A DNA stretch of 64,000 nucleotides from an uncultured Treponema sp. GTDB taxonomy: Bacteria > Spirochaetota > Spirochaetia > Treponematales > Treponemataceae. The position numbers and the translations under genes are program-made. Every line of letters begins with the position of its first letter. The stretch's first letter is position 1. Shown here one piece after another: positions 4,821 through 59,087 of this stretch. The notes beneath the pieces were generated by a model. The model did no database searches. It worked only from the letters and a program-made list of their open reading frames with translations, and was not told where the DNA came from. The DNA lies in NCBI GenBank assembly GCA_964541735.1, contig CAZIQK010000003.1, forward strand, positions 5,484 to 69,483, written 5' to 3'.

Positions 4821-4872
4821 ATTTATTTATAAACCACGGGAATCTAAGATGAATTTGGAGTAATTAAATAAA

Positions 4873-13937: not shown

Positions 13938-13946
13938 TTTTAAATT

Positions 13947-14543
13947 TTAAAACGGAATTTGATAACAAAGTGGAACTAAAAATCCATTTATCAAAATATT
14001 TCCTAAAATTAAAACTACTAAAAAAGTAATCCAAGTGGTAAGAAGCGTTGTTTGATAATTTATTGGCTTTTTTACAAATGTTTTTGCAATTTTGTAAGAA
14101 AATTTATTAATAAACATATCAAGTTGATTCCAAGCGGAATTAAAATCTGTTTGTCCATGATGAGCAAGCAAAACAATCCATCTTACTAAAACGAGCAAAA
14201 ATAAAATTGAAATTAACGAATTACAAACGCTCCAAAGCATAGAAATAATCGTTGCAAGAATTCCTCCAAAGAAAACTCTTCCGGTTTGATTAATGCCACT
14301 TAAAATTGAAGATGCAAGCGACAAAACTCCTATAGACAAAATTGGCGAAAAATCAAAGTTTCCAAGACGGAGCCAGCCGCGTTTACCAAAAAAATCCAAG
14401 TAGGGGTCGCAAATTGTTGAAATAAATTTGCCAAAGGAAGTAAATTTTGCACCCGGAATCCAAGTCAAAATAATATCAATAAGACACAAAATTGTATAAA
14501 TTGTAATTGCAAAAGATAAAAATCTAAAAATCCAACTAATCAT
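13947..14543 (-). CDS. YggT-family integral membrane protein
   Basis: 198 aa, multiple TM helices. ICDPYLDFFGK...FDFSPIL pattern of YggT repeats. Confidence 0.6.
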   Translation of the reverse strand: MISWIFRFLSFAITIYTILCLIDIILTWIPGAKFTSFGKFISTICDPYLDFFGKRGWLRLGNFDFSPILSIGVLSLASSILSGINQTGRVFFGGILATIISMLWSVCNSLISILFLLVLVRWIVLLAHHGQTDFNSAWNQLDMFINKFSYKIAKTFVKKPINYQTTLLTTWITFLVVLILGNILINGFLVPLCYQIPF

Positions 14544-14559
14544 TCTAATTCCTTATAAA

Positions 14560-26078: not shown

Positions 26079-28622
26079 TTAAAGTCCAGCTTCCTTTAAT
26101 AAATCATCTAAATCACTCAAATCAGGAATTTCTTCATCTGAATTTTGAGAATTTTCCGAAGATTGATTTTCTGATGAAGGATTTTCTTCAGAAATTTCAG
26201 AATTTATTTCTTCTGCAAAATTTTCCTGTGAAAATTCACCATCAATAGTATTTTCTGACGAATCAAAAATATCTTCTTTTGGCATATCATCAAGATTTTC
26301 TGGTAAATCAACTTTATATTCTTCTTTTATTGTTTCTGAAGGTTCTTCTATTACTTCGCTAATTTTATTTTCATCTTCAACTTCCGGAACAACAATTTCT
26401 TCAGGAAGTTCATCATTTCCATTATTTTGAACTTCTGCAAATTCTTCTCTTTTAATTTTAGATTCATATTTCAAAACTAAAATAGAAACATCATCTTCCA
26501 TTTCTTTTGACATAAATTTAACTAAATCATCAAAAGTAAATTGTGCCATTCGCTGAGCGTTATAAGTTGAATTATCTAGAATTGCTTGCTGAATTCGTTC
26601 TTTTCCATATTGTTCGCCACGAAGTGAGTGAGATTGAACTAATCCATCGGTACAAGCAAGAATAATATCTCCATGATTTAATTTTGTAGTTTTTACAGAA
26701 ATATAAGGAGAAATGTCTTTTACAAATCCTAAAACGTGTCCCGAACCTTGAATTTCGATTACGTTATTATAAACTTGTGTATACATCATTAATGCAGGAA
26801 TTCCGCAGTTTATGTAATACATTGTATCAGTTTCAAAATCAATAAGAGCAAAAAGTCCCGCAAAAATTGTACCTTTTCGTAAAGAATCGCGAACAAATGT
26901 ATTTGTTTTTACAACTAATTCCTTAAAATCATGAGTTTCCGCCAAGAAAGTTCGAATAATAGATTTTAAGATGACCATATTCATAGAAGCGGCAATTCCT
27001 TTTCCAGACAAGTCGCCAACTACAAACAAATGCCTTGTCGCTGTAAGACGAATCATATCAATAAATTCACCACCAATATTATGAGATGGAACCATCAAAT
27101 ATCCAGTGTCGATTTTTTCGTTGGTTACATGGTCAATATTTTCCTGAATAGATGTAATAATCTGAGAAGACATCCTAATTTCTCGATTTACAATACCAAT
27201 AACTTCTTTATTAGAAATATTACGCATATAGTAGCCGTAAACGAAAAAGTGAGAATAAAGTTTATCAAAAACTTCATAGTCATAATCTTTAAAATGGTCA
27301 CCATTTGATTTTTTACCGAGAGTTATAACTCCAAAAATATTATGACCTTCGTTCAAAAGAAAAAGTACATCAGAATTTGTTTTATCAAAAAACGCTTGAA
27401 TATCATTTCGCACATCAGCTAAATCATGTTCTTTTTCCAATTGACTTTGCAAAACAACGCTACGATTTATGTTCAAAAGAGCATCAAAACCCGGAGTATT
27501 TATAGGAAATTTTGCTATATAATTATTTGAAGTGTAAGCAGTTTCCAGTTCTCCTTGATTGTTCAAAATATAAACGCACATTGATGAAGTTTCTGTATTA
27601 CGTTTTAAGATTTCAAACATTCGGTTTGCAATATAATCCATTTCGCCAGTTGCATAATCTATTGAAGCCAAATCTCTTTCCAAAGAAGCACCATAATCTG
27701 CCGTGTAAAATTTTGTTGATTTTGCAAAAAGCTCAGAAATCCAATATGCATAAATTACACAAATGATGATTGTAGTAAAAAGTAAAAAGAAATAAACGCC
27801 ATCATTATTTGAATACAAAGGTTGAGCAAACATTGCAACCGCTCCAACGGCTGCAGCAGGCAAGAAATACGAAATCAAAACTCTTATAATTGTGATAAAT
27901 AAAACTTTGCCAGTTGGAACCGTTTCTTGTTTTAATGCAGAATAAATAACCATATACATAAAAAGATATGCATACATATAAAGTGCCGAAAAAAGCGGAA
28001 TATCTTTTGAAATATAACTAATGATAAACCTGCAAAACCACATTAAAACAAGTGCAAAAAATGATAAAAGTGCTTGCGATTTTTCTAGTTGGGTTGCTTG
28101 AGTCTCTTTTTTAATTGCCATTATTAAAATTCCAACTAATGGCAAAATATAACGAAAACTAAATGTATAAACAGTTACCCAAGTCCAAGGAAAAAACTTT
28201 CTAGCAGTTTCTGAGAATAAATATTCAGATTGAATAATAATTCCTTTATCATTGCTTACATCAATTTGAGAAAAGCGAGTAAACACTAAAACACAAACTA
28301 AAACACAAAGTACAACTTGAATAAGTCGTGGAAAGAATTTTTTAGTATTTAATGAGATTGATAAAAATCCATAAGTTAAAAATACAAACATAATTCCGTC
28401 TAAACAGAATGCAATTCGCATAAATTGAGTGGTTAAAGAATCCATCCAATAATTTCTAAAAATCATTGTTGCTAAAAGGAGAATAGATTCGCCACACGCA
28501 AAAAGAAGCGAAACAGAAAAAGAACTCACTTCAACCGAGTTGTTTTTTATTCTGCTATCTAAAAGGCGGGTAAAATAAATAAGTGCAAAAACCACTACGG
28601 CATTCAATACAATATAAATCAT
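26079..28622 (-). CDS. polytopic membrane PP2C/SpoIIE-family serine phosphatase with acidic low-complexity tail
   Basis: 847 aa. About 9 predicted TM helices, then a GAF-like spacer, then PP2C motifs (VVGDLSGKGIAASM, ILACTDGL). The last ~130 aa are an E/D/S/N-rich repeat (SENxSSENQSSENSQNS). Confidence 0.8.
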   Translation of the reverse strand: MIYIVLNAVVVFALIYFTRLLDSRIKNNSVEVSSFSVSLLFACGESILLLATMIFRNYWMDSLTTQFMRIAFCLDGIMFVFLTYGFLSISLNTKKFFPRLIQVVLCVLVCVLVFTRFSQIDVSNDKGIIIQSEYLFSETARKFFPWTWVTVYTFSFRYILPLVGILIMAIKKETQATQLEKSQALLSFFALVLMWFCRFIISYISKDIPLFSALYMYAYLFMYMVIYSALKQETVPTGKVLFITIIRVLISYFLPAAAVGAVAMFAQPLYSNNDGVYFFLLFTTIIICVIYAYWISELFAKSTKFYTADYGASLERDLASIDYATGEMDYIANRMFEILKRNTETSSMCVYILNNQGELETAYTSNNYIAKFPINTPGFDALLNINRSVVLQSQLEKEHDLADVRNDIQAFFDKTNSDVLFLLNEGHNIFGVITLGKKSNGDHFKDYDYEVFDKLYSHFFVYGYYMRNISNKEVIGIVNREIRMSSQIITSIQENIDHVTNEKIDTGYLMVPSHNIGGEFIDMIRLTATRHLFVVGDLSGKGIAASMNMVILKSIIRTFLAETHDFKELVVKTNTFVRDSLRKGTIFAGLFALIDFETDTMYYINCGIPALMMYTQVYNNVIEIQGSGHVLGFVKDISPYISVKTTKLNHGDIILACTDGLVQSHSLRGEQYGKERIQQAILDNSTYNAQRMAQFTFDDLVKFMSKEMEDDVSILVLKYESKIKREEFAEVQNNGNDELPEEIVVPEVEDENKISEVIEEPSETIKEEYKVDLPENLDDMPKEDIFDSSENTIDGEFSQENFAEEINSEISEENPSSENQSSENSQNSDEEIPDLSDLDDLLKEAGL

Positions 28623-39563: not shown

Positions 39564-40883
39564 TCATTTATATGTTTCGCTTCGTTTTAAAAGTTCCATA
39601 CAAGTTCTTCCATTATGATAACTAGTTTTCCAATTGCCACCTTTATCTTCCCGTAAAATAGGATTTCCATTTTCGTCTAAGGCTGACCACCAATCACCAT
39701 TTTTTTTGTCTACTTGGTGATTTAAAATCCAATTCCACTGTTTTTCTGTGGCCTCTTCATATTTTTTTTGATTTGTCATTTGCCAAGCATTGTAAAAACC
39801 GTTTATGCTTTCTGCTTGATTCCACCAAACGCGAGTTTTATCTTTTGTTGTTCCGCCATTTATTGCAAAATTTTCAAGACAACCATTTTTTGAATCAAAC
39901 CCTTCGTTTAGGGCAACTTCTGCAACTTTTATAACTGTATCGTGAATTTCTGATTTTAATTCGTCATCATTAAGTTCGCACGCTGCTTCCCAAAGTAACC
40001 AAGACGCTTCTATATCGTGTCCATAAGAAATTTCATCTTTTAAAAGATTCCATTGCATATCAAAAAACATTCCAAGATGAGCATTTGGCTGTAAAATTTT
40101 ATTGACAGTTATGCGAACTAACTCACTTAGGCTTTCACCAACTTCTGCACGAACTGATTTTGCATCTGAAAAAACGACTGGCAATGTTCTGTAAAGATTT
40201 GTGTACGCTTCCATAACATGAAGATTTGTGTTCATTGATTTTGGACAATTCATATCTTTTGGAGAAAGAATCATATCGTCGGTTTTTGTCCAATCTTTTG
40301 CACAAGCTTCAATGTATCCTCCAAATTCTTGATCGTATGCATATTTTTCCAGAAGATTGTAAATGTCTAATGCGTGATTCATTGCTTCTTCGGAAAGAGG
40401 GGGCGTTACGGGGTTCTCCCCGTTAGAAAGGGTAGCGGAAGACTGCGAAGCAGGCTGGAGTGAGGGGAATACTTTCCCCTCCTTTAATTCTCTTACTGCT
40501 GCTGCGTATTCTGAAAGTCCGTAGCAACAAAATGCCTCGCCATAAATTTGTTTTTTGTCTACTTTGGGAGTTCCATCTGGCATTACAGACCAATAAACGC
40601 CATCGTTTTCTTTATCAAAATATTTATTTATAATGACAGAGTAAGCAAAATCTGCCATTTTCAGATAATCCGGATTTTTGGTCATTCTTGCAACGGCACT
40701 AAAAGTCCACAAAAAGCGAGATGTCATTACGATTGAACGTTCACAATTTTTGTTTGGAAGATTTTCGTTGTCGATTTTTCCATAAAAACCTTCAAACCCA
40801 TTGCGTGTATCTTTTGAGTATTTTTCCCAATATGGAAGAATGTTGTTAAAAAGTTCATTTTTTACTGATTGATAATCTATCAT
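39564..40883 (-). CDS. N-acylglucosamine 2-epimerase (AGE) superfamily protein carrying an in-frame GC-rich insert
   Basis: 439 aa. Alpha6/alpha6-barrel family pattern (YWEKY, RFLWTFS, GEAFCCYGLSEY, GGYIEA, YGHDIEASWLL, WWNQAE, WKTSYHNGR). Confidence 0.78.
   Translation of the reverse strand: MIDYQSVKNELFNNILPYWEKYSKDTRNGFEGFYGKIDNENLPNKNCERSIVMTSRFLWTFSAVARMTKNPDYLKMADFAYSVIINKYFDKENDGVYWSVMPDGTPKVDKKQIYGEAFCCYGLSEYAAAVRELKEGKVFPSLQPASQSSATLSNGENPVTPPLSEEAMNHALDIYNLLEKYAYDQEFGGYIEACAKDWTKTDDMILSPKDMNCPKSMNTNLHVMEAYTNLYRTLPVVFSDAKSVRAEVGESLSELVRITVNKILQPNAHLGMFFDMQWNLLKDEISYGHDIEASWLLWEAACELNDDELKSEIHDTVIKVAEVALNEGFDSKNGCLENFAINGGTTKDKTRVWWNQAESINGFYNAWQMTNQKKYEEATEKQWNWILNHQVDKKNGDWWSALDENGNPILREDKGGNWKTSYHNGRTCMELLKRSETYK
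40395..40484. repeat. GC-rich hairpin element inserted in frame inside the AGE-family gene
   Basis: About 85-90 nt of GC-rich sequence, homologous end to end with 8775-8868 (rc). It encodes KEGKVFPSLQPASQSSATLSNGENPVTPPL in an otherwise AT-rich gene. Confidence 0.7.
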
Positions 40884-40957: not shown

Positions 40958-42052
40958 TTAGTCTTCAAATAAAACTTTTTCTTGTTGAGTTTCTGCTTGA
41001 CCTTCTGCATACGCTACTCTACCAATTTTGTATGCCTTCATATCCGGACAATAATCTTTATGATATTTTGAAGCATTTTGATTGAACATTTCTAAAATAG
41101 CATCTGCATCTTTTAAATTTACCGCAAGAACAAAACCTATTCCCATATTAAATGTATTATAGATTGAATTTAAATCTGCACCACGACGAATAAGTTCTCC
41201 GAAAATTGGAGGAATATCCCAAGAGTCACGTTTGATGATAGAAATTAATTGTTTTTTACCTTCTTTTGCTTTTGGAAACATACGAGGAATATTTTCATAG
41301 AATCCACCACCGGTAACATGAACCATTCCGTGAACAGATTTTCTATATTTAGAAAGAACTTCCATAACTGGTTTTACATAAATTCTTGTTGGAGTTAATA
41401 AAACTTCACCAATTTTTTTGCCTGTATCTTTTCCGTCAATTATAAATGCATCGTTAAAATCCGGAACCAATTTTCTAACCAAACTAAAACCGTTAGAATG
41501 AACACCTGTTGAAGAAAGCCCGATTAAAACATCACCTTCTTTGATTTCTTCACCGGTAATCATTTCTTTTTTTTCACCAACGCCAACACCAAAACCGGCT
41601 AAATCATATTTTCCATCATCATAAAAATCAGGCATTTCAGCAGTTTCGCCACCAAGCAAAGCACAACCAGTGTCTACACAACCATCAGCTACACCTTTTA
41701 CAAGTTCACTAGCAACATTTGCATCAAGTTTTCCGCATGCAACATAATCTAAAAAGAATGAAGTTTGAACGCCGGAACAAAGAATATCATTTACACTCAT
41801 TGCAACACAGTCAATTCCAACAGTGTCATATTTGTTCATTTTAAAAGCAACATCTAGTTTAGTTCCAACCCCATCAGTTCCACTTACAATTACAGGATTT
41901 TTATATCCTTTAGGAACTTCAAACATTCCGTTAAAACTACCAAGACCAGTTAAAAGTCCGGGAATTGCTGTTCGTTTTGCATGCTCTTTATATTTATTTA
42001 CCGCACGATAACCTTCTTCAACATCAACACCAGATTCTTTATAAGATGCCAT
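40958..42052 (-). CDS. purM: phosphoribosylformylglycinamidine cyclo-ligase
   Basis: 364 aa, with SGTDGVGTK and GLLGGETAEMP motifs. Confidence 0.95.
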   Translation of the reverse strand: MASYKESGVDVEEGYRAVNKYKEHAKRTAIPGLLTGLGSFNGMFEVPKGYKNPVIVSGTDGVGTKLDVAFKMNKYDTVGIDCVAMSVNDILCSGVQTSFFLDYVACGKLDANVASELVKGVADGCVDTGCALLGGETAEMPDFYDDGKYDLAGFGVGVGEKKEMITGEEIKEGDVLIGLSSTGVHSNGFSLVRKLVPDFNDAFIIDGKDTGKKIGEVLLTPTRIYVKPVMEVLSKYRKSVHGMVHVTGGGFYENIPRMFPKAKEGKKQLISIIKRDSWDIPPIFGELIRRGADLNSIYNTFNMGIGFVLAVNLKDADAILEMFNQNASKYHKDYCPDMKAYKIGRVAYAEGQAETQQEKVLFED

Positions 42053-42202
42053 AAAAAACTCCTTTTATTTAGAAAACTTTGCATATAGATAAAGTTATTA
42101 TAGAGAAAAACTCTCTATTTGGAAAGACAGAAGATTTTTATTCCATTGTACGAATACGTCTCTGAACTCCATTTTCTGTAAGGAAATTATTTATTTTTAT
42201 GC

Positions 42203-42238
42203 CTACGGTATTGGGCGAATCATTTTTTCGATGAATGA
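42203..42238 (-). repeat. remnant copy D of the methyltransferase gene 3' end
   Basis: The minus strand encodes SFIEKMIRPIP-stop. It shares the core atcattttttcgatgaatg with the real gene end at 44338-44405. Confidence 0.75.
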
Positions 42239-42285
42239 AGAAGCTTAGTCTTGAAGTGGAAAACGTAAGCAAATATCGAGGATTC

Positions 42286-42669
42286 CTATCTTACGTCAAA
42301 AATTTGAAGTTTTGGGAGAACAACTTGCATCATCTTAAAATGATTATCGTTTGTCCAGATTGAACAGTTATATTTTATACCAAGATATGCAATCATCGCG
42401 TCTTGAAACGGAACAGTAAGTCCATTTCTTCTGAACTCAATAAATAGCTCTGCAAGTTTAATCCAATCAGATTCTTCAAAAAGCAAATAAGAAAAATCAT
42501 TTAAAGCTTCGTTGAATTCTGTGAATTGCTTTTCAGAACGAGCTCCTCTCAAGAGTTCAGTTTTTATAACACCGCAAGTGGCGATGTCATTGTCCGCAAA
42601 AATGTGTCTTGCTTTTTCAGTGGGATTGTTCCAAAAGTCGATTATGATATTCGTATCGGCAATAATCAT
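42286..42669 (-). CDS. PIN-domain toxin (VapC-like)
   Basis: 127 aa. MIIADTNIIIDF with the conserved first Asp, and later acidic residues (E at ELLRG, D at WTNDNHF). 4-nt overlap with the upstream small ORF. Confidence 0.8.
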   Translation of the reverse strand: MIIADTNIIIDFWNNPTEKARHIFADNDIATCGVIKTELLRGARSEKQFTEFNEALNDFSYLLFEESDWIKLAELFIEFRRNGLTVPFQDAMIAYLGIKYNCSIWTNDNHFKMMQVVLPKLQIFDVR

Positions 42670-42881
42670 ACAAGGCTTGCCTCGCGCAATTCTGTAACTT
42701 CGTTTGGGTCAAGGTGAACTTTTCCAGCAAGAGCAAAAAATGAGTTTTTGCTTTTTGTGCCATTATGAACAACAGGATGTTCTTCTTGTTCATTTTTCAA
42801 CAACTTTATAAAAGCCGAAACAGAGCTTAAAAGAGGCTCCGGGAGAGTTTTTACTTGTTCTATAACCATTTCATAACTCAT
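42666..42881 (-). CDS. putative antitoxin of the PIN toxin
   Basis: 71-aa ORF overlapping the toxin start (ATGA). GGAGG RBS 7 nt upstream. Assigned by position only. Confidence 0.5.
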   Translation of the reverse strand: MSYEMVIEQVKTLPEPLLSSVSAFIKLLKNEQEEHPVVHNGTKSKNSFFALAGKVHLDPNEVTELREASLV

Positions 42882-42883
42882 TT

Positions 42884-43000
42884 TTTACCTCCAATCTAAA
42901 TATATCATATTCCGGCGGAATCTTCCATAAAAGGATTACGGCATCGCTCGAATCATTTTTTCGATGAATGATGTTTCGTCGGTGGAAAGATTGTATTTTA
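42884..43000 (-). repeat. remnant copy C of the methyltransferase 3' end plus shared TA promoter/RBS leader
   Basis: 42936-43000 encodes KYNLSTDETSFIEKMIRAMP-stop (real gene: KKYNLSADETAFIEKMIKPMM-stop). 42884-42935 is near-identical to 43580-43634. Confidence 0.8.
42898..42906 (-). promoter_or_regulatory. extended -10 (TGaTATATT) of the VapBC-like cassette
   Basis: Minus strand reads TGATATATT about 20 nt upstream of the antitoxin ATG. An identical element lies at 43598-43606. Confidence 0.4.
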
Positions 43001-43336
43001 TAAATCCAATAAATCCGAAAGAGCTTTGGAAATAACAAGCATGATTGATGGCGGAAGTTTTGAAGCTTTTTCTACAAGACAAGATTTGTCAATTATTCCA
43101 ACCTGTGGCGTAATGGCGACAGAATCTTTTGAAAGTTTTGTAATATCCTTGCTTAAAAATACATTGTCTTTATAGTCGGCAAGATTAGTATTTGTTGTGA
43201 GAGGAACGACTACTGTAGTCATAATGCGACTTGCATTGAAATTATCATTCTGGACAATCACCGCAGGTCTTCTTCCTTGAGGAGTACTTCCATAGGCAAG
43301 ACCGAAATCAACCCACCAGATTTCACCACGTGTCAT
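42998..43336 (-). CDS. MazF/PemK-family endoribonuclease toxin
   Basis: 112 aa. MTRGEIWWVDFG...GRRPAVIVQND...VVPLTT pattern of PemK/MazF. Confidence 0.85.
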   Translation of the reverse strand: MTRGEIWWVDFGLAYGSTPQGRRPAVIVQNDNFNASRIMTTVVVPLTTNTNLADYKDNVFLSKDITKLSKDSVAITPQVGIIDKSCLVEKASKLPPSIMLVISKALSDLLDL

Positions 43337-43577
43337 TTTTTAGAACCTCCCACATTGTCCGCATTGATGATTTTGCGGCCGCAATCTGTTCTTCAGCGGG
43401 GATTTTATCATACACAGCGTTTATGCGCTCGACTTCTGCTTCGTCAATATTGGAATCGTTTTGAGAGGCCCTTTTCTTTGCAAGCAAGACCTGAACTTTT
43501 TCATATATTTCTTCAAGCGATGGAATGTCAAGCTTGTCAAGTTCTGAATTAAAATAAGCATACGCAAAATCTGACAT
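43323..43577 (-). CDS. putative antitoxin of the MazF-like toxin
   Basis: 84-aa ORF overlapping the toxin start by 14 nt. GGAGG RBS upstream. Assigned by position only. Confidence 0.5.
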   Translation of the reverse strand: MSDFAYAYFNSELDKLDIPSLEEIYEKVQVLLAKKRASQNDSNIDEAEVERINAVYDKIPAEEQIAAAKSSMRTMWEVLKNDTW

Positions 43578-43579
43578 AC

Positions 43580-43679
43580 TTTTTTACCTCCGAACTAAAT
43601 ATATCACATTTTAGCGGAATTTTCCATAAAAGGACTACGGCATTGGACGAATCATTTTTTCGATAAATGATGTTTCGTT
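43580..43679 (-). repeat. remnant copy B of the methyltransferase 3' end plus shared TA promoter/RBS leader
   Basis: 43635-43679 encodes ETSFIEKMIRPMP-stop. toxN terminates inside it in another frame. The leader is homologous to 42884-42935. Confidence 0.8.
43598..43606 (-). promoter_or_regulatory. extended -10 (TGaTATATT) of the MazEF-like cassette
   Basis: Same 9-mer, in the same position relative to the GGAGG RBS, as at 42898-42906. Confidence 0.4.
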
Positions 43680-44158
43680 TGCCATTCTGCACATTTTGTT
43701 TCTAAAAGTAAAAAATCGTTACAGCGTTTTGAAAGTCCTGTTTTATTGCCATTCAATTTTTTGTGAATGTAGACAGTTTTTGCATTTTTTATGATTTTTT
43801 CTTCAATAGTTTTTATAAAACGATATTCATTACGCAGAAGATTCTGATAATTTTTATCTGCTACTGAATTTATATCTAGGAATTTACAATCATTGCTTGA
43901 AGCAGGAAACATATTGTTTATGTTCAAAACAGCAAAATCTTTGATTTTTATAAAATCCACAGTTTCTCTCATATTTTTATGTTTTTCTTTAAAAGACGAG
44001 AGAGGAACAAAATAATCTAGGCTATTTACAGAAAGCACAATACCGATATATTTCCGACTATTCTTCTGAGATGCTTTTTTGTTTTTAAACAGATGAGGAG
44101 CAAAAAGCGAAAGGAAATCAATATAATCTAGATTTATTTCGTAGAATTTCAATGACAC
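43652..44158 (-). CDS. toxN: type III toxin-antitoxin toxin, ToxN/AbiQ-family endoribonuclease
   Basis: 168 aa. KFYEINLDYIDFL ... KYIGIVLSVNSLDYFVPLSSFKEKH ... LNINNMFP ... YRFIKTIEEKI ... CNDFLLLE is collinear with the ToxN/AbiQ sequences I recall (MKFYTISSKYIEYL ... FIGIVLEI..YLAPLTSPK ... CNFSLLEE). GTG start behind AGGAG. Preceded by repeats plus a terminator, as in ToxIN loci. Confidence 0.85.
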   Translation of the reverse strand: MSLKFYEINLDYIDFLSLFAPHLFKNKKASQKNSRKYIGIVLSVNSLDYFVPLSSFKEKHKNMRETVDFIKIKDFAVLNINNMFPASSNDCKFLDINSVADKNYQNLLRNEYRFIKTIEEKIIKNAKTVYIHKKLNGNKTGLSKRCNDFLLLETKCAEWQTKHHLSKK

Positions 44159-44172
44159 TAAAACTTTCTCCT

Positions 44173-44206
44173 ACAAAAAAAACGGAGGCAGTTTTCTACC
44201 TCCGTT
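44173..44206 (-). terminator. intrinsic terminator/attenuator between repeat RNA and toxN
   Basis: aacggagg-N10-cctccgtt 8-bp GC-rich stem (44181-44206), followed on the minus strand by a U-run (A-run 44173-44180 on +). Same position as the ToxI-toxN terminator. Confidence 0.7.
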
Positions 44207-44283
44207 CTGTTAACATTCTCATTTATAAGGCCGAGATATGCCTACTGCTAAAGTTCTCGCTTATAGAGCCGAGATACACTCAC
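44200..44283 (-). ncRNA. ToxI/antiQ-like repeat RNA antitoxin (about 2.3 x 38-nt direct repeats)
   Basis: On the + strand, ttataaggccgagatatgc (44223-44241) and ttatagagccgagatacac (44261-44279) recur with a 38-nt period. About 27/38 positions are identical over full units. Sits between a TTGACA-17-TATATT promoter and an intrinsic terminator, directly upstream of toxN. Confidence 0.7.
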
Positions 44284-44290
44284 TTTTTTT

Positions 44291-44319
44291 AATATAACCA
44301 TTGCATAGAGAGTTGTCAA
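44291..44319 (-). promoter_or_regulatory. sigma-70 promoter of the toxIN locus
   Basis: Minus strand reads TTGACA (44319-44314), a 17-nt spacer, then TATATT (44296-44291). Confidence 0.65.
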
Positions 44320-44337
44320 GTTTTTGATTCTGCTATG

Positions 44338-47300
44338 TTACATCATCGGCTTTATCATTTTTTCGATGAACGCGGTTTCGTCGGCGGAAAGATTGTATTT
44401 TTTGTAAAGCTGCGCGTCAATTTCGGGGACGGATTTGCTCCAGTCGATGTCGCTTTCGGAAGTGAAGTCTTGGAGCGGAACGAACTGATAAACGGCTGCT
44501 GGAGCGTGTTGAGTATTCTTAATTAGCAATACCATAAACCTAAAATATTTTGTTTTAATATAAGAAATTACATTCTTTGTTTCTTGTTCTGTACTAAATG
44601 GACCAATCACCATATAAGTTTCTGTGCAACAAGAATTTTTTTCTCCAAATATTGGTTTGTTTAGAATTTGATGTGGAAATCCTTCTCCAGCACCATAGGC
44701 AGCAGTTATGTAAACTTTATATTTGTTTATCCAATCTTTATGCGTCAAAATTTCTGATTCAGAAATAAAACCTATTTTTTTGTTTTCATAAAGTTTTACT
44801 GAATTTTCAAAAGGTTCATTTTTCCCATGAACATAAGTTCTTAACCCAAACGGTTTTTGAGAACTGACTAAACTCATAAAGGATTTCTGATTTAATATTC
44901 TAGTTTTTCGTAATATAGAAACGCCTTCATTATAACGGATAAAGATTGAACAATCTTTTTCAAGTAAAGGTCGTTTCATTGCAGATATTTCTGATGAAAC
45001 AGTTGTAACGATTGTTTCTCCGTGATAGTTCTTATCCCAAAGGAAAAAGCAAATGCCTCCTTTTATTTCAACATTCGGAAAACAATCTTTAGCATCCAAG
45101 AAATCATAAATGCAGCGAATTGATTTATCGTTAAGAATTTTATCTCTGAAATTATCTAATCCACGTCCGCCGCTAAACCAGCGGGATGGCATTATCATTG
45201 AAACAAAATTAGGTTTTATTTTTTCTGCTGTAATTACAAATTTATCATAAACAGGAACAGCACTAGCCATTCCGCCTCCGTCCATTTCCTGATACGGCGG
45301 ATTTCCCACGATTGCGTCAAAGTCCATTTTTCCGTCTCCTTTTCCCCAGTAGCTTTTGCTTGTCACTTTGCTGATGAAGCTGTCGCTCTTGTTCTTGAGC
45401 TGGTTCACCAAGTCTTCAAAGTAGTGCGCGTTGATTTTTACGCCGCCGTAGCCGCTCAGCGTGCGCTGCGTGATTGCCTTCGCCATCGGCGTTTTGCAGA
45501 TTACAAAAATGTTCTCGCTGATTGTCTCGTTCCAAAGCTGTGCGTCGGTGGTTTCGACAGGCTCAACCACCACACTTTTTTGCTTGGCTTTCTTCTCGCG
45601 GAAAATCGAGTAGGCGCAATAAAGCGGATAAAGTCCGGTCTTGCTGTTGATTTCAAGAATTTTTGCGTCAGCGTTGCCGAGCGTTTTGCCGGTTACATTG
45701 TCAATCTGGATAAAATGCGGCTCCTCGTTTTCGGCGAGAGGCTTTTCATAGTCAGCGTCAAAGAACGAATATCCGCCAAGGCAGTCGCCCAGGTGCATGT
45801 TCACAACGCGCCAGGGAGTCAAAACTGTTTCCTTGTCAGGATTTTTGAAGTACGAGAAAATCTCCGCGATTTTCCGCACGCGCTCCTTCACTTCCAAATT
45901 GTCAGCGTTTTTCACAAGGTTTCTAATCCGCTTTCCCGCCGCGATAAAAACATCCTCGTCGTAATATTTTGTGAACTCCTTGAACTTTTCCTTTGTGATT
46001 CCGCGCGGCATGAACTCCTGCCATGAAGTTTCGTCGACCATCTCCACGAACTTTTCAAGGCTGATTTCTTCGTTCACGTCAACGTCCGCGCCGTAAATCA
46101 AAAGCGGCATTCTGATTGAGATTCCGCGCAGAACGCTGATTGCAGTCTGCCGCATCTTTTTTGCTTCCTGGAGCTTTTTCTTCGCTTCTTCCTCTTCGGG
46201 AGTCAGCTCGCGTTTTTCTTTCTGCGGCTTCGGGTTTTCAAGTTTTTTGTATTCTTCCTCAGTCAAGCCTGTGGAGTTCACGTCGATTTTTCCGCCGGAG
46301 TTGTTCGCCTTTGTCTCGCCGATAATCTCCTGGAGCTTCTTGAACTGATTTAGTTCTACCGAAGTGAGCTTTAGAAGCTCGTCGTTGTATAGATTCGCGT
46401 CGTCAAAGCCTTTTGTAACGGCACGCTCAGCGTAGGAAGATTTGAGTTGTTGGAGAAGACCGTTCACTTGGTAAGACTTCATCGTGCTGCCTTCAATCCC
46501 AATCACCGGGCAGTAGTTCAGAAACTCTCCGAGGCGGATTTTGTCATCGATTTTTGTTTTTCCTGCCTTTGAAGAAAGCGCGACTGAATCGGCGACCATT
46601 TTCAAGGTTCTGTCGGGCGCGAAGTCAAAGACGTAGGCGCGTGTTTTTGACTTTCCGTATTTGCTGCACGGAGTCTGTACGCGGAAAATTGTCTGAAGAT
46701 AGCCGCTTGCCTTTGTTGTGTAGCTTCCCGAAAGCATAAAGACCGCGCTCCATTCAGGAACAGAAACGCCGGTTGTGAGCTTTCCGCAGCTCAAAGTAAT
46801 TGTGTAGCCGTCTTCGCCAGCGTCGCTGATTGCTTTTTTCACGGCTTCCAGAGCCTCGCCGGTCGGGTCTTCAGGATCTCCGTCGCCCGCAACATTCACT
46901 ATATTAAAAGTCTGGAAAACCGGATGGCTTTGCATAAGACGCTGCAATGCAAGAGCCTCTTTTACGCCCGGAACCATCCATAGAGTGTGATGAAAAAGAT
47001 TTCTGTATTCATCCGAGCTGAACGGATACAAACTTTCATCGCTTTCTTTTGTGAGCAGATTCAAAAATGAGTTCACATCATCTTCGTGGACAAATGTTCC
47101 TGCACCGTTTGTCTTGAAGAACTCCGAGAAGTTGAACGACTTGTCCTGAATGTCCTCGTATTTTTCGCGGAGAAGCCTGCCCAGGTCGTAAGTGAACATC
47201 CGCATTTCAGGCAAATCGGAATACGGATTCGAGTCGCCGAAGTGTTTTTTCTCCCATTCGTGCTTTGCATGTTGCTCCATCACGTAGTCCCAAGTGTAGA

Positions 47301-48312
47301 CAGAGTTGTCGTCATCGTAGTTTTCAAGAATGTTGAACGGTGTTCCCGAAAGCTCCAAAAGTTTTGTACCTTCCTTTTCCTTGAACAGAAGCGACTTCAC
47401 TTCGTCACCGAGCTTTGTTGTTGTTCCTTCGTGTGCCTCGTCGATAATAACCAAGTCCCACTTTACGCCGAAAACATCATCGTTCTTGTCGAATTTTCCG
47501 CCCGCTTCCTTGGAGCCGCGCAAGTCCTGGATTGAGGCGAAGTAAATGTAGTTCTTGCCTGATTTTTCAAGTGCGCTTATTGTTGCGTCATTTTTCTTTG
47601 AGCCATAAACGTAGTTGTCTTCTTTTGTAAAAATCTTGGAAAAATCCTCGTGCCAACCTTCGTCAACAACGGGGCGATGAGTAATCAGAATTGTCTTTTT
47701 GAACTTGCATTCTTTTACAACTTCGAGTGCGGAAAGAGTTTTTCCGAATCTCATCTTCGCGTTCCAGAGCATTCGCGAGCCTTTTTTGAAGTGCGCCACG
47801 GTTTTCATTATCGCATCTTTCTGCTCAGGGCGGAACACAACCGGCACGTACTCGGACGAAGATTTTGTTCCGTCAAGTCTTGTCATCTGCTTTTTAACTG
47901 CACTGATTGCCTCTTTCGCAGTGTTAATGCCGATTTCAAACCATTCCGCACCGGTAGACTGTTCAAACCTCTTCTTTTTGATTCCTGAGTTTTCAAGCAC
48001 GCGGTGGACTTTTTTATCGCGGAAACTTTCTGTGATGAACTTTCCGTTTTCCTGCCTTGTTGAAAGCGCAAGCTCCGTGTGCAGAAGCTTGACTGGGACC
48101 GCCGCAGTGTTCGTGTACTCGCGGATTCTTTTGAGCGCGGCCTGGTTCAAGGCGTTGCAGTTCGGCGAAAGAAAGTCCGGCTGCAAATCCGTGTCGAGCG
48201 TTGTGTCGCCGATTTTGAGGCAGCCTGAGTGCGTGTCGTCTGGAATTGTGAAAATGTAAATCAGTTTGTATGAAAATGTATTCTTAAAAACCTGAGATTT
48301 TTCTTCCGCCAT
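44338..48312 (-). CDS. fused T5orf172 (GIY-YIG-like) / SF2 ResIII-type helicase / Eco57I-type N6-adenine DNA methyltransferase
   Basis: 1324 aa. N-terminus LKIGDT...KKVHRVLE...GAEWFEI. Helicase motifs FRPEQKDAI, AKMRFGKTL, VIIDEAHEG, LSGTPF, TTGVSVPEW, QTIFRVQT. MTase motifs TPWRVVNMHL, ILEINSKTGLYPL, IVGNPPYQ. Conserved tail KKYNLSADETAFIEKMI. AAGGAG RBS 7 nt upstream. Confidence 0.8.
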   Translation of the reverse strand: MAEEKSQVFKNTFSYKLIYIFTIPDDTHSGCLKIGDTTLDTDLQPDFLSPNCNALNQAALKRIREYTNTAAVPVKLLHTELALSTRQENGKFITESFRDKKVHRVLENSGIKKKRFEQSTGAEWFEIGINTAKEAISAVKKQMTRLDGTKSSSEYVPVVFRPEQKDAIMKTVAHFKKGSRMLWNAKMRFGKTLSALEVVKECKFKKTILITHRPVVDEGWHEDFSKIFTKEDNYVYGSKKNDATISALEKSGKNYIYFASIQDLRGSKEAGGKFDKNDDVFGVKWDLVIIDEAHEGTTTKLGDEVKSLLFKEKEGTKLLELSGTPFNILENYDDDNSVYTWDYVMEQHAKHEWEKKHFGDSNPYSDLPEMRMFTYDLGRLLREKYEDIQDKSFNFSEFFKTNGAGTFVHEDDVNSFLNLLTKESDESLYPFSSDEYRNLFHHTLWMVPGVKEALALQRLMQSHPVFQTFNIVNVAGDGDPEDPTGEALEAVKKAISDAGEDGYTITLSCGKLTTGVSVPEWSAVFMLSGSYTTKASGYLQTIFRVQTPCSKYGKSKTRAYVFDFAPDRTLKMVADSVALSSKAGKTKIDDKIRLGEFLNYCPVIGIEGSTMKSYQVNGLLQQLKSSYAERAVTKGFDDANLYNDELLKLTSVELNQFKKLQEIIGETKANNSGGKIDVNSTGLTEEEYKKLENPKPQKEKRELTPEEEEAKKKLQEAKKMRQTAISVLRGISIRMPLLIYGADVDVNEEISLEKFVEMVDETSWQEFMPRGITKEKFKEFTKYYDEDVFIAAGKRIRNLVKNADNLEVKERVRKIAEIFSYFKNPDKETVLTPWRVVNMHLGDCLGGYSFFDADYEKPLAENEEPHFIQIDNVTGKTLGNADAKILEINSKTGLYPLYCAYSIFREKKAKQKSVVVEPVETTDAQLWNETISENIFVICKTPMAKAITQRTLSGYGGVKINAHYFEDLVNQLKNKSDSFISKVTSKSYWGKGDGKMDFDAIVGNPPYQEMDGGGMASAVPVYDKFVITAEKIKPNFVSMIMPSRWFSGGRGLDNFRDKILNDKSIRCIYDFLDAKDCFPNVEIKGGICFFLWDKNYHGETIVTTVSSEISAMKRPLLEKDCSIFIRYNEGVSILRKTRILNQKSFMSLVSSQKPFGLRTYVHGKNEPFENSVKLYENKKIGFISESEILTHKDWINKYKVYITAAYGAGEGFPHQILNKPIFGEKNSCCTETYMVIGPFSTEQETKNVISYIKTKYFRFMVLLIKNTQHAPAAVYQFVPLQDFTSESDIDWSKSVPEIDAQLYKKYNLSADETAFIEKMIKPMM

Positions 48313-49248
48313 TTATTTGCTCCTTTTTCTTAAAAGCGATTTGTATAAAACGACTTTGTTTTCTTTCCAGTCCTTGATTTTGCAAGGATGATTTTCTACA
48401 GCATTCATTTCTTCAAAAAGAAAATCTTGACCGCTGTCGTCGCTAGAGGAGAACGGAGTTGAAAAAGTCAGTCCGTCCATCTGCCACAAGTTCCAGGAAA
48501 TGATTTGTGCAATTTCCATCTGCTCGTTTTCAGTCGCCTTGCGTCTCAAAAAATGCTTTGTGTATTCATCAAATGAAAGAAGAAGGTTCGCACGCGCCAG
48601 AACCAGATTGTCGCCCTGAAGCTCAAATCCGTAGCAGTTTTCAAACGCGGTTTTTGTCCACAAAAAATATTCTTCCTCGTTAGCCGCGTTCTCGCATACA
48701 ACCCGCATTTTTCTGTCCAGCAGCCCGATTCTGTTCATCAAGCTGATTTTCCTTCCCGAAACCATGTCGTATCGGCTTGCAAGATAAGGTGCTTCGCCGC
48801 AAGCGATTTCAAGCCGCGAAAGCTTAACGTAGTCCTGCCATGTTTTGCCGCTCTCAATGTCGGTTGAGAAGTCGATTTTTTCTTTTGATGATTTCCATGT
48901 TTTTCCTGTCTGCGTGTTGAAGACGTTTTTGCGAGCAAACCAGGCTTCGTCAATCAGATTGTTTTGTGCGTTGCAAATCCAACTCGGAGTAAAAACTTCC
49001 GCCTTTCCACGAGTACGCTTGATTTGTGCATCTTTTTGTTTTTCAACTCTCGAAATTATCCGTCCAGAATTTTTCCCTGTAATCTGCTCAATCTTAATTT
49101 GTGATTCTGCAGTAATCGGAAAATAATCATCCGTTGCCCAAAGAATGTTTTTTCCGGTTGTGCGGTCAAGAAGAAGAACAGAAAGAATTTCTTTAGAAAA
49201 AGTAAAATCGAAGTGCATTTGAGTTTTATTCACGCTTTTACAGTCCAA
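48313..49248 (-). CDS. methyltransferase-fold-like protein lacking the (D/N)PP(Y/F) tetrad, partner of the fused enzyme
   Basis: 311 aa (TTG start; alternative ATG at 49218). KAEVFTPSWICN (motif X-like), LEIACGEAPYL (motif I-like), CYGFELQGDNLVLARANLLL, and SWNLWQMDG where the big protein has GNPPYQEMDG. Stop abuts the next ATG. Confidence 0.55.
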   Translation of the reverse strand: MDCKSVNKTQMHFDFTFSKEILSVLLLDRTTGKNILWATDDYFPITAESQIKIEQITGKNSGRIISRVEKQKDAQIKRTRGKAEVFTPSWICNAQNNLIDEAWFARKNVFNTQTGKTWKSSKEKIDFSTDIESGKTWQDYVKLSRLEIACGEAPYLASRYDMVSGRKISLMNRIGLLDRKMRVVCENAANEEEYFLWTKTAFENCYGFELQGDNLVLARANLLLSFDEYTKHFLRRKATENEQMEIAQIISWNLWQMDGLTFSTPFSSSDDSGQDFLFEEMNAVENHPCKIKDWKENKVVLYKSLLRKRSK

Positions 49249-49310
49249 ATGGATTATTAAAACCTATTATAAATCCATTCACACTGAACAATCAAGATAA
49301 AAAATCCATT
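49248..49310. promoter_or_regulatory. candidate XRE operator: 8-mer aatggatt / aatccatt x2 in the divergent promoter region
   Basis: aatggatt at 49248-49255 and its reverse complement aatccatt at 49272-49279 and 49303-49310, all within the 80-bp spacer between the divergent genes. Confidence 0.4.
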
Positions 49311-49327
49311 TGCATTATTCTGTAGAC

Positions 49328-49663
49328 ATGTTAGATTTTTGGAATCATGTAAAAGAAGAACTTGAATACAAAGGAATGTCTCAAAAAGAATTGGCGTTCA
49401 TTACAAAAATCAGTTACAACACATTCCAATCTTGGATGACAAAAGACAGACTCCCCGATGCTGCCGATTCTGTAAAAATAGCAAAAGTTCTTGGAGTTAG
49501 CGTGGAATATCTTGTTACCGGTACAGAAAACGTTCAAATCAAACAAACAAATAGTGAAATAGATTCTTTTTTCCGTGACATCAAACATCTTTCATCTGAT
49601 GACTTAAAAATTGCAAAAACGATTGTTCACAGATTGAGCAAAACATCAACAACAACTTTTTAG
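49328..49663 (+). CDS. XRE-family helix-turn-helix transcriptional regulator
   Basis: MSQKELAFITKISYNTFQSWMTKDRLPDAADSVKIAKVLGVSVEYLV is a canonical HTH_XRE. Start placed at ATG 49328 (track start 49310 is TTG). Divergent from the R-M-like operon. Confidence 0.8.
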   Translation: MLDFWNHVKEELEYKGMSQKELAFITKISYNTFQSWMTKDRLPDAADSVKIAKVLGVSVEYLVTGTENVQIKQTNSEIDSFFRDIKHLSSDDLKIAKTIVHRLSKTSTTTF

Positions 49664-56846: not shown

Positions 56847-58973
56847 TTACTTTCCTATTAATACAACAGTTGAATCTGCTATTAAAACATAGCGCCGTTG
56901 TTCTTCAAGAAATTCTTCTTTTCCATTTTCTAAAATATCTATAGGGCTTTCAAAAGAACTATCTGCAACTCGATACCACTTTTTATTTCCCGACAGTGCC
57001 GGTAATGTAATTGTTAAATCATAACGATCCATATTTGTTGCAATATAAAAATCATTATCATTTATTAAAGAACCGTTTAGTTTAAAACCTAAAAAACGTT
57101 TCATTTTATTCCAATCAGGAACTTTTGCATTTATATCAAACCAAGAAATTTCTGTGATTCCATTTTTTGCACCAAAAAATTCTTGCATTCTAAAGATTGA
57201 ATGATTTTTTCTCAATTTGATTAAACTTGAAACAAAATTTATCAATCCTTCATTTTTTTGTGCAAGCGTCCAATCAAAATAACTGAGTTCATTATCTTGA
57301 CAGTATGCATTATTATTTCCGTTTTGTGTACGACGCATTTCATCTCCGCCAAGAATCATTGGAACACCTTGAGAAAGAAGCAAATAGATAAAGAAATTTT
57401 TGATTTTTTTCAATCTTAAAGTTTCAATCTTTGGATTTATACAATTTCCTTCAAATCCGTGATTATAACTTAAATTATCATCAGAACCATCTCGATTATT
57501 TTCACCATTTTCATCGTTATGTTTTCCGTTATAACTTACTAAATCATTTAAAGTAAATCCATCATGAGCAGTTATAAAGTTGATAGATGATTGAGGTTTT
57601 CTTCCATCGTGATTGTAACAATCTGAACTTGCACAAATACGCGTTGCAGCTGCCGTTACCGCTCCATCATCACCACGTAAAAATCTTCTCATATCATCAC
57701 GAAATTTTCCATTCCATTCTGCCCAACGATTATTTTTTCCACCGGGAAATCCACCAAGTTGATAAAGTCCCGCACAATCCCAAGGTTCTGCAATAATTTT
57801 TGTTTTTGAAAGAATTGGATCTGAATTTATAAAACTTGTCAAAGAAGGCATTTCGTTAGAAATTGGAGAACCATTTTCTGCACGAGTTAAGATTGATGCT
57901 AAATCAAAACGAAAACCATCAACGTGCATATTCAAAACCCAATAACGCAAACTATCTAAAATAAAATTCATTACAACAGGATGATTACAATTCAAACTAT
58001 TTCCACATCCTGAATAATTCATATAATATTGCAAATCATTTTGTGGTAAAGAATAATAAACATTATTTTGAATTCCTCTAAATTCAAAAGTGTATCCATG
58101 TTCATTTCCTTCCGCAGTATGATTAAAAACTACATCCAAAATAACTTCAATTCCATTTTTATGAAGTTCTTTCACCATTTTTTTAAATTCATTTACAGGC
58201 CCAAGAGGAGTTTTATCAGCGGCATAAGAAGTTTTTGGAGCAAAAAATCCGATTGTAGAATATCCCCAATAATTTACAAGATTTTCTCCGGTTCGAGGAT
58301 TTATATTTGCATTTTCATTTTCATCAAACTCAAAAATTGGTAAAAATTCTACAGAAGTAATGCCAAGTTTTTTTAGATAATCAATTTTTTTTGTAAAACC
58401 TGCATAAGTTCCTGCAATTTCTGATGAAAGTGCTGAAGTTTTAGAAGCAGTAAACCCTTTTAGATGAGTTTCGTAAATAATTGTTTTTTCTAAAGGATAA
58501 TTTAGGGGTCTGTCCCCTTCCCAATCAAAATTATCATTTACAACAACATTTTTTGGAAAATTAGATAAATCTTTTATTTCTCCACCTTCATTTACAGAAA
58601 ATCCTTGATTATGAAGATTGTTGTAACATTTAAAAACTGAACCTTGAGTGAATGCTTTTGCATAAGGGTCAAAAATATATTTATGCTTATTAAAGCGAAA
58701 GCCTTTTGTTGGTTCGTAAGGACCTTCAATTTTATAAAGATATAACGTTCCTTCTTTTGCACCACAAACTAAAATGTGCCAAATATCACCAGTTTTATTT
58801 TTTAAAGAATCTAATTCAATTACATTTGAAGGCTGCGATGATTTTTCGTTATCAAACAAACAAAGAAAAACTTTTTGAGCATCACGACTATAAATAGAAA
58901 AATTAACGCCTTCCGATGTTATTGTTGCACCTAACGGCATTGGCAGTCCGTTTTTTGATGTTACATTCGCCAT
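56847..58973 (-). CDS. glgX: glycogen debranching enzyme (GH13, GlgX-type)
   Basis: GH13 regions DVVFNHT, GFRFDLA, EPWD, FITAHDGF. Start ambiguous (ATG 58973 or TTG 58997). Confidence 0.88.
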   Translation of the reverse strand: MANVTSKNGLPMPLGATITSEGVNFSIYSRDAQKVFLCLFDNEKSSQPSNVIELDSLKNKTGDIWHILVCGAKEGTLYLYKIEGPYEPTKGFRFNKHKYIFDPYAKAFTQGSVFKCYNNLHNQGFSVNEGGEIKDLSNFPKNVVVNDNFDWEGDRPLNYPLEKTIIYETHLKGFTASKTSALSSEIAGTYAGFTKKIDYLKKLGITSVEFLPIFEFDENENANINPRTGENLVNYWGYSTIGFFAPKTSYAADKTPLGPVNEFKKMVKELHKNGIEVILDVVFNHTAEGNEHGYTFEFRGIQNNVYYSLPQNDLQYYMNYSGCGNSLNCNHPVVMNFILDSLRYWVLNMHVDGFRFDLASILTRAENGSPISNEMPSLTSFINSDPILSKTKIIAEPWDCAGLYQLGGFPGGKNNRWAEWNGKFRDDMRRFLRGDDGAVTAAATRICASSDCYNHDGRKPQSSINFITAHDGFTLNDLVSYNGKHNDENGENNRDGSDDNLSYNHGFEGNCINPKIETLRLKKIKNFFIYLLLSQGVPMILGGDEMRRTQNGNNNAYCQDNELSYFDWTLAQKNEGLINFVSSLIKLRKNHSIFRMQEFFGAKNGITEISWFDINAKVPDWNKMKRFLGFKLNGSLINDNDFYIATNMDRYDLTITLPALSGNKKWYRVADSSFESPIDILENGKEEFLEEQRRYVLIADSTVVLIGK

Positions 58974-59087
58974 AAAGTGAATATTACCACAGTACAAAAG
59001 AAAATTCTATAAAAAATTAATGCTGCTGAGAGGTCGTTGAATTTCTATCAATTCTTCTATAAGATAGACTAACAAATAGGAAAAATT

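Follow-up and report, generated by a model that had tools for sequence, protein, structure and literature searches.

Defence genes cluster in islands, and how small systems that carry no mobility genes arrive in them is poorly understood. A locus in the 64-kb stretch of DNA analysed here (contig CAZIQK010000003.1 of an uncultured Treponema sp.; hereafter the window) raises this question in a concrete form: by what process has a restriction-modification (R-M) gene come to be followed by a row of toxin-antitoxin (TA) cassettes that are separated by copies of an R-M gene end? Four copies of this 3' end, all on the minus strand, bracket a toxIN, a mazEF-like, and a vapBC-like cassette, which follow one another in this order from the R-M end. 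The region as a whole is a small defence island, in which a type IIG-like R-M operon precedes an array of TA/abortive-infection cassettes. Judging from comparison with related loci, it is probable, if well short of certain, that we are dealing with a recombinase-free cassette array kept up by homologous recombination between the repeated R-M ends and the promoter-like leaders that accompany them. No earlier description of such an arrangement was found within the literature searched.

Four gene ends around three cassettes

Copy A (44338-44405, ending in KKYNLSADETAFIEKMIKPMM-stop) is the functional 3' end of the R-M gene, and its conserved homology segment reaches approximately position 44510. 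Copies B (43635-43679, ETSFIEKMIRPMP-stop) and C (42936-43000, KYNLSTDETSFIEKMIRAMP-stop) are relics of such an end, to which toxN is joined approximately 45 nt, and the mazF stop codon approximately 65 nt, before the respective relic's own stop. Copy D (42203-42285) comprises the 3' flank of vapC and an R-M fragment with the common core and the tail SFIEKMIRPIP-stop. All four sites are real and lie, on the same strand, where the sequence-only reading of the window had placed them; their extent, however, had to be revised. Copies B and C are parts of a 99-nt repeat, 88% identical, which runs beyond the stop codon into a promoter-like leader and reaches the ribosome-binding site (RBS) of the antitoxin gene. 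Copy D, when aligned with its counterparts in three relatives (L011_2, L049_2, and L053_2), starts near 42285, approximately 50 nt upstream of the 42203-42238 first proposed; its vapC-to-R-M junction lies approximately 175 nt before the stop, as in these relatives, and it has an internal deletion. The copies start 733, 699, and 703 nt apart, counted from A to D.

With up to three mismatches allowed, the core that the copies share, TTCATCGAAAAAATGATTCG, has four matches in the window, namely copies A-D and none elsewhere. Dinucleotide shuffles give an expectation of 0.05, and 0 of 100 shuffles reached four, which upholds the common core originally described. The array was assembled independently in at least six public contigs and is therefore not an assembly artefact. 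Searches for exact matches to the vapC, mazF, and purM products of the window returned the same array only, with no within-strain polymorphism seen. All three toxin genes of the window are intact, and the identities assigned to them agree with Pfam matches to the ToxN, PemK/MazF, and PIN families. Two junctions had likewise been read correctly: toxN ends inside copy B in another frame (TGA at 43652-43654), and copy C shares its first bases with the mazF stop codon (TAA, 42998-43000). A TTTATAA microhomology is found at the latter junction, and an equal junction occurs at copy 4 of the array in L011.

The copies had been proposed to be the ends of distinct R-M genes, because their differences looked mostly conservative at the peptide level. 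The tails (RPMP, RAMP, RPIP, and KPMM) are not especially so. Nonetheless, the proposal itself is supported by the sequence that follows copy D. The 63 nt after its stop codon (42140-42202, minus strand) are a relic of the sequence that natively follows R-M alleles of the IRPMP type, matching L064 at 40 and L029 at 39 of 63 positions, and 0 of 2000 shuffles scored as well. This relic identifies the right part of copy D as what was once the end of a resident gene. Beyond it lies the right flank of the array, which consists of the purM promoter region and purM, a core gene (40958-42139, minus strand; 96-97% identical to L051).

Turnover of cassettes between related genomes

The rule that N cassettes are accompanied by N+1 gene-end copies holds in seven arrays: three cassettes and four copies in the window and in L011, and one cassette and two copies in each of L048, L049, L051, L053, and L063. 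L011, a metagenome-assembled Treponema genome, is the closest relative in GTDB (70% identity to the query protein over the best aligned segment). Its array is composed of the R-M end, a leader, and vapBC; a relic, a leader, and a second VapB/PIN pair (PIN2); a relic, a leader, and mazE with a truncated mazF; and, finally, a relic and an empty leader, after which comes a convergent pseudouridine-synthase gene. Thus, the order of cassettes is vapBC-PIN2-mazE(F) in L011 versus toxIN-mazEF-vapBC in the window. In the shorter arrays, the R-M gene is followed by vapBC, a relic, and purM (L049/L050); by toxIN, a relic, and purM (L051/L052); by a hybrid vapB/PIN2 cassette, a relic, and purM (L063); by a frameshifted vapBC, a relic, and an empty leader (L053); or by a frameshifted vapBC and a decayed relic (L048). 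Twenty homologous loci without such cassettes, 16 from distant lineages and four from Treponema (L054, L055, L059, and L064), have a single copy each. Since the copies mark cassette boundaries in all seven arrays, the tie between motif and boundary, which had been proposed from the window alone, extends to other genomes.

Cassettes also differ between genomes that are otherwise nearly identical. L049 and L051 are distinguished by a clean swap of vapBC and toxIN at one site, with both flanks 98-100% identical and with R-M genes that are mostly 95-99% identical, apart from a few patches of 77-85%. The window and L051 share their flanks (95-97% identical) and toxIN (97%), and the window has two extra cassettes. 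At the nucleotide level, the vapBC cassette of the window is 94-95% identical to those of L011 (94.5%) and L053; vapBC is thus conserved to this degree between genomes whose R-M genes are approximately 77% identical. Furthermore, what adjoins the R-M gene and its array on the right varies between genomes: purM in some, an HD-domain gene or the convergent pseudouridine-synthase gene in others. Gene content beside the array differs as well, in that purM is followed by a gene of the GlcNAc 2-epimerase family (39564-40883) in the window but by purN in the close relatives L049 (16045-16659) and L051 (10277-10900).

A table and an alignment of all 18 copies from the seven arrays indicate which parts of them travel with the cassettes. 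The point at which cassette and R-M fragment meet is specific to the type of cassette, is conserved from genome to genome, and shows short microhomology: approximately 175 nt before the stop for vapBC (window, L011, L049, and L053), approximately 165 nt for PIN2 (L011 and L063), 65 nt for mazF (window and L011) and for vapC of L048, and 45 nt for toxN (window and L051, in which the junction is identical). Apparently, each of these junctions was made once and then inherited with its cassette. In contrast, the sequence that lies right of the core in a terminal relic belongs to the locus and not to the cassette. In L051 (toxIN) and L063 (PIN2), the terminal copies have the tail ctcaattgagtaa and the purM promoter in common, whereas the live gene ends of these loci differ (cccgatggaataa in L051 and agcgatggaataa in L063). 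Such locus-specific tails imply that incoming DNA brings a new functional end and that the former resident end is pushed downstream. Terminal relics shared by strains with differing cassettes and live gene ends also argue, as does the sequence after copy D, for an origin of the copies from distinct alleles.

Crossovers are not restricted to the core. The hybrid antitoxin gene of L063 matches unit 1 of L011 exactly in its leader and over its first 22 nt, and unit 2 exactly thereafter; the crossover falls within a GTTATA that both units share, approximately 130 nt from the core and inside the antitoxin open reading frame (ORF). The relic of L063 is, in turn, a mosaic of L011 copies.

A metagenome scan for the exact 20-nt core returned 20 loci, mostly unrelated proteins containing FIEKMIR; only L022, L029, and L033 are R-M ends, with one copy each, so the scan is uninformative on arrays. 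A plasmid search for the core and the leader yielded only an orphan R-M end in pTS1 of Treponema saccharophilum (L066, 6949-7083). This fragment of approximately 125 nt, annotated as a 44-aa (amino acid) hypothetical protein, follows a helix-turn-helix (HTH) gene, lies beside a type ISP enzyme that is unrelated and encoded on the opposite strand, and represents a relic without its gene. A different type of insert occupies the same flank in L059-L062 (e.g., L059 8899-11814) and L048 (7771-10409), in which the R-M orthologue is followed by an HTH gene and a DUF4417 gene, joined in L059-L062 only by a gene for an ImmA/IrrE-type M78 peptidase; there is one gene-end copy at this insert.

Probable homologous exchange and its alternatives

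Is there a recombinase that could have built the array? Of the 41 distinct ORFs in the window that are 150 aa or longer, 38 were scanned with Pfam; three ORFs nested antisense in larger genes are not included in this count. Neither an integrase nor a transposase domain turned up in these 38, with 14560-18288, 26079-28622, and 56847-58997 lying outside the scan; the scanned ORFs are mostly housekeeping genes, and two have no family match. The genes called in the vicinity of the arrays in L011, L048, L049, L051, L053, and L063 likewise showed no recombinase domain, and the cassette inserts hold only TA genes, with no transposase or integrase. Folding of both strands of three inter-cassette units gave no attC-like structure (minimum free energy of -11 to -14 kcal/mol, z of -0.02 to -2.6), no GTTRRRY core was seen in these units by eye, and dyad symmetry within the core TTCATCGAAAAAATGATTCG is limited to 4 bp at most. 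The initial impression that integrases, transposases, and attC-like sites are missing is thus borne out for the ORFs scanned and the units folded. An integron, a transposon, and a prophage were all rejected because no such gene is present among the scanned ORFs.

The model we favour starts from the structure of the units. Each cassette carries at its distal side an R-M 3'-end fragment of 45 to approximately 175 nt with a cassette-specific junction, and type II cassettes carry the shared promoter/RBS leader at their proximal side, so that every unit is flanked by direct repeats of 45 to approximately 285 nt. What is repeated on both sides of a cassette is the conserved last 135-175 nt of the R-M gene, extended in some units by the leader of approximately 110 nt. 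Recombination between these repeats, presumably dependent on RecA, could delete, swap, or stack cassettes, and the exchange might take place in or out of register, inside a single chromosome or with DNA that has come in from a related strain. The right-hand homology arm, a portable one, would be the conserved R-M end. Because both arms have the same sequence, a unit consisting of an R-M end, a cassette, and an R-M fragment could be inserted wherever the R-M gene is present, irrespective of what lies downstream, and this independence would account for finding the same cassettes both at purM and next to the pseudouridine-synthase gene. N+1 copies would arise because the incoming DNA supplies the functional end and the resident end is displaced downstream as the terminal relic. 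As for the junctions between cassettes and fragments, each was probably formed once, by microhomology-mediated illegitimate joining, and subsequently spread. The sequence-only reading had put forward both homologous exchange at the R-M end and site-specific insertion into it. At least one crossover well outside the core, the mosaic copies, and the absence of a recombinase domain from the scanned ORFs favour the former and weaken the latter.

Homologous exchange in the form described above does not sit easily with every observation. Of the 18 copies, 14 have a perfect 20-nt core, whereas the bases to the left and right of the core vary, and a recombinase site would look the same. The mazF cassette and the vapC cassette of L048, which are independent of each other, are both joined at 65 nt before the stop. 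Similarity between leaders ends within approximately 2 nt of the start codon, in front of unrelated cargos as well as in empty terminal leaders, a precision that random illegitimate joining does not predict. Moreover, some of the homology arms are short (45-65 nt, approximately 85-90% identical), and RecA-type recombination is efficient only down to about such lengths. Finally, an empty site, in which the R-M stop codon would directly precede the purM promoter, is an inferred state, none having been seen at the purM locus. Short arms, the perfect core, two junctions at the same position, and the leader edge at the start codon keep two alternatives alive.

According to the first of these alternatives, which we regard as possible but rather unlikely, each cassette would have entered independently by insertion with long target duplication, and homologous recombination would be secondary and later. 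In such a process, DNA is joined at two staggered target points, and whatever lies between these points becomes duplicated; in the present case, this would be the R-M 3' end, either alone or together with the leader. Insertions of this kind have been described by Nobusato et al. 2000 and by Furuta, Abe & Kobayashi 2010 (PMC2853133), the latter with direct target repeats of variable length, from more than 30 bp to approximately 400 bp and often at gene 3' ends, around inserts without mobility genes. By its sequence features, the Treponema locus appears closest to this class and would be a variation on it rather than a new category: there is no mobility gene, the repeats are long and variable (45 to approximately 285 nt), the target is a gene 3' end, the arrangement was found by genome comparison, and cassette-free orthologous loci are single-copy (although no empty site was seen at purM). 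The vapBC cassette of L053, flanked by a duplication of approximately 285 nt (R-M end, spacer, and leader), and the existence of five different junction positions also fit such a process. In the described cases, however, R-M systems are the cargo of single insertions, whereas here R-M is the target, TA genes are the cargo, and the insertions are iterated into an array; in addition, the repeats come from different alleles and not from the recipient alone. Independent entry is spoken against by the relics, which match other alleles, not the current gene end, and by the junctions, which are inherited with the cassettes across genomes instead of being re-made at each insertion. Furthermore, the class has no defined mechanism and is hard to tell from out-of-register homologous recombination; as a distinct process, it may thus overlap with the exchange model.

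The second alternative, an unlikely one, is that the R-M end, and especially the core TTCATCGAAAAAATGATTCG, is an attachment site for a recombinase encoded elsewhere or by a helper element and that integrase-less units accrete at it. Cis-mobilizable elements (CIMEs) next to integrative and conjugative elements (ICEs), integrative mobile elements exploiting Xer (IMEXs) at dif, and pdif modules are parallels for such accretion. In CIME/ICE accretion at fda of Streptococcus thermophilus, in tRNA-linked islands, in Xer-dependent IMEXs, and in pdif modules, tandem accretion at gene 3' ends gives N elements and N+1 attachment copies that overlap the gene's 3' end, which the incoming element restores. 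N units with N+1 sites are the signature of tandem site-specific accretion, and the locus shares it, with N+1 copies of a gene-3'-end sequence. The perfect core between variable flanks would suit an attachment site, as would the right edge of homology at the purM locus, which is exactly the stop codon, and the resident tails shared by L051 and L063, which place the crossovers concerned either at the core or directly to its left. The systems named above nonetheless depend on a tyrosine recombinase and on a defined core sequence. Here, neither the scanned ORFs nor the called genes surrounding the arrays showed an integrase, transposase, or Xer-like domain; the viral contigs and phage records searched contained neither core nor leader; and the core, with its limited dyad symmetry, has no attC-like structure. 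At least one recombination event occurred approximately 130 nt from the core, in an antitoxin ORF, and the relics are internally mosaic. With no recombinase found in the 38 scanned ORFs or in the flanks of related arrays, and with crossovers not fixed, the locus would seem to fall outside the definitions of CIMEs, IMEXs, and pdif modules. In live genes, the core is no more conserved at synonymous sites than the neighbouring codons. Because the whole terminal 45 codons are conserved in these genes, the core is not demonstrably special, and the idea that it is under special DNA-level constraint gained no support from this comparison.

It is quite unlikely, though conceivable, that the R-M end and the leader form the platform of an unrecognised, integron-like cassette system without attC, in which a dedicated factor would capture ORFs with precision at the start codon and attach them to the gene end. 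This factor could be a recombinase encoded in trans or the R-M enzyme itself, breaking its own locus; if so, the locus would be a programmable rack for defence cassettes. Integrons, including the TA-rich chromosomal integrons of Treponema, resemble the locus in having a one-directional array of small cassettes that often encode TA systems, a repeated element, and a fixed platform. They differ in that no IntI was found here among the scanned ORFs and there is neither attI/attC nor a hairpin-forming repeat; the repeat consists instead of a coding 3' end and a promoter, and each type II cassette has its own promoter/RBS. Lastly, chance or low-complexity matches, an assembly artefact, and in-situ tandem duplication with later divergence were rejected and retain next to no probability, since an A-rich core and a regular spacing of approximately 700 nt count for little against four core matches where 0.05 are expected, an array identical in at least six independent contigs, cargos from three unrelated families (ToxN, PemK, and PIN), and units that recur in other genomes in a different order.

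Homologous exchange, the preferred explanation, has parallels of its own. In minimal mobile elements (MMEs), as defined in Neisseria, alternative cassettes occupy one site between conserved sequences and are replaced by homologous exchange without mobility genes. The same is true of variable defence loci exchanged via conserved flanks, e.g., in Streptococcus suis (PMC5398294). Exchange of this kind, mediated by flanks, is what is observed between L049 and L051 (98-100% identical flanks) and between the window and L051 (95-97%). The difference is that MMEs undergo one-for-one replacement between two different flanking genes, whereas here both arms are the same sequence, so that out-of-register exchange would stack cassettes and leave N+1 relics.

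The cassettes, the anchor gene, and what the locus means

The toxIN cassette (minus strand) is a type III TA system (ToxIN/AbiQ), with a ToxN-family toxin, upstream tandem RNA repeats, and a terminator. A promoter-like site read from the sequence, TTGACA-17-TATATT (44291-44319), starts 18 nt past the R-M stop codon, and L051 has the same arrangement. The ToxI-like antitoxin RNA (44207-44276), identified by a repeat search, has two direct repeats spaced 38 nt; these had no match in Rfam at E<=1. A terminator-like hairpin with a T-run (44175-44206) separates the repeats from toxN, as is typical of type III TA loci. The toxN gene (43652-44158) encodes 168 aa that match Pfam ToxN_toxin (6.7e-46, whole model covered) and PADLOC AbiQ (5e-36). 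The last approximately eight codons and the stop are read from copy B in a shifted frame (43652-43679; L051 9040-9066), so the toxin has a chimeric C-terminus encoded by an R-M relic, with the Pfam domain still complete.

The other two cassettes, also on the minus strand, are of type II, as each has an antitoxin ORF that overlaps a PemK or PIN toxin gene, the antitoxin families being weakly matched. The mazE-like antitoxin (84 aa, 43323-43577), whose ORF overlaps the mazF start, has no family match and has a homologous copy in the L011 cassette; the mazF-like toxin (112 aa, 42998-43336) matches Pfam PemK_toxin (1.2e-22). The vapB-like ORF (71 aa, 42666-42881), which overlaps the vapC start, has a weak match to NCBIfam TA_VapB (5.4e-4, below the cut-off), and the vapC-like PIN toxin (127 aa, 42286-42669) matches Pfam PIN (6.5e-12) and, below the curated cut-off, NCBIfam TA_toxin_VapC (5.9e-19). 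Toxins have decayed in some relatives: vapC is frameshifted in L048 (5591-5976) and L053 (approximately 4623-5005), and mazF is truncated in L011 (13134-13286). L048 also has small TA genes on the opposite strand (MazE/PrlF, PIN, RelE, and MqsA-like; 11642-15252), approximately 6 kb downstream of the R-M orthologue, and this run may be a separate cassette array or an integron.

The leaders precede the antitoxin genes on the same strand. Leader B (43578-43634), before mazE, has a promoter-like TGGAAA-17-TGaTATATT, a degenerate palindrome, and an RBS; leader C (42882-42935), before vapB, is also promoter-like, with the palindrome ATTCCGcCGGAAT (42909-42921) and an RBS. The two are 88% identical within the 99-nt repeat, and the leader also occurs in L011, L048, L049, L053, and L063. 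The perfect palindrome ATTCCGnCGGAAT is located in the -35/-10 spacer at 42909-42921, in degenerate form at 43608-43620, and in L011 at 11286-11298 and 12118-12130; it is predicted to be, and probably is, an operator. The palindrome was also considered as a binding site common to the R-M promoter; it was not found in the R-M/HTH promoter region. The arrays on the pseudouridine-synthase side end in a complete leader, promoter-like and with an RBS, that drives no gene (L011 13393-13445 and L053 5181-5235), and the start codon after the empty terminal leader of L053 is mutated to ATA.

The anchor gene (44338-48312, minus strand) had been taken for a methyltransferase. Its product does include an Eco57I methylase domain (Pfam, 2.4e-28) but is a 1324-aa fusion with a ResIII helicase domain (3.2e-16). 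Together with the PADLOC match to REase_MTase_IIG (4.7e-74, with the model on the C-terminal third), this points to a type IIG-like R-M enzyme; a T5orf172 nuclease-like match is weak (0.0029, below the Pfam curated cut-off). The first gene of the R-M operon encodes a 311-aa type II methyltransferase (48313-49248, minus strand; PADLOC MTase_II 3e-100, no Pfam match). A divergent gene for a CI-like HTH regulator (49310-49663, plus strand; Pfam Phage_CI_repr/HTH_3) accompanies the R-M genes in those orthologous loci for which the contig includes the upstream region. Homologues were collected with the full-length anchor protein, as a search with its C-terminal 300 aa was swamped by stand-alone methylases of approximately 505 aa; the full-length orthologues are mostly named Treponema.

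Among these orthologues, the last 45 codons are well conserved at the nucleotide level, whereas the gene body is only 55-85% identical. The R-M genes of the window and L051 are likewise only 55-85% identical, and their recognition-domain region (approximately 44600-45000) is effectively unalignable. Divergent R-M genes amid flanks that are 95-97% identical imply that these genes are replaced as alleles in a conserved neighbourhood, and the comparison suggests allelic replacement of restriction specificity at a fixed locus (44338-49248). It also appears that the conserved R-M end lets the hypervariable R-M gene itself be replaced.

The locus provides a concrete and checkable example of how defence modules without mobility genes are collected beside an R-M system. 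If a short gene end travels with each cassette, ordinary recombination may insert, stack, permute, and delete cassettes next to the R-M gene. Replacement of the R-M gene via the same end would couple the turnover of restriction specificity to that of abortive-infection modules. Should the arrangement prove general, "relic gene ends" could mark recombinase-free cassette arrays in other genomes.

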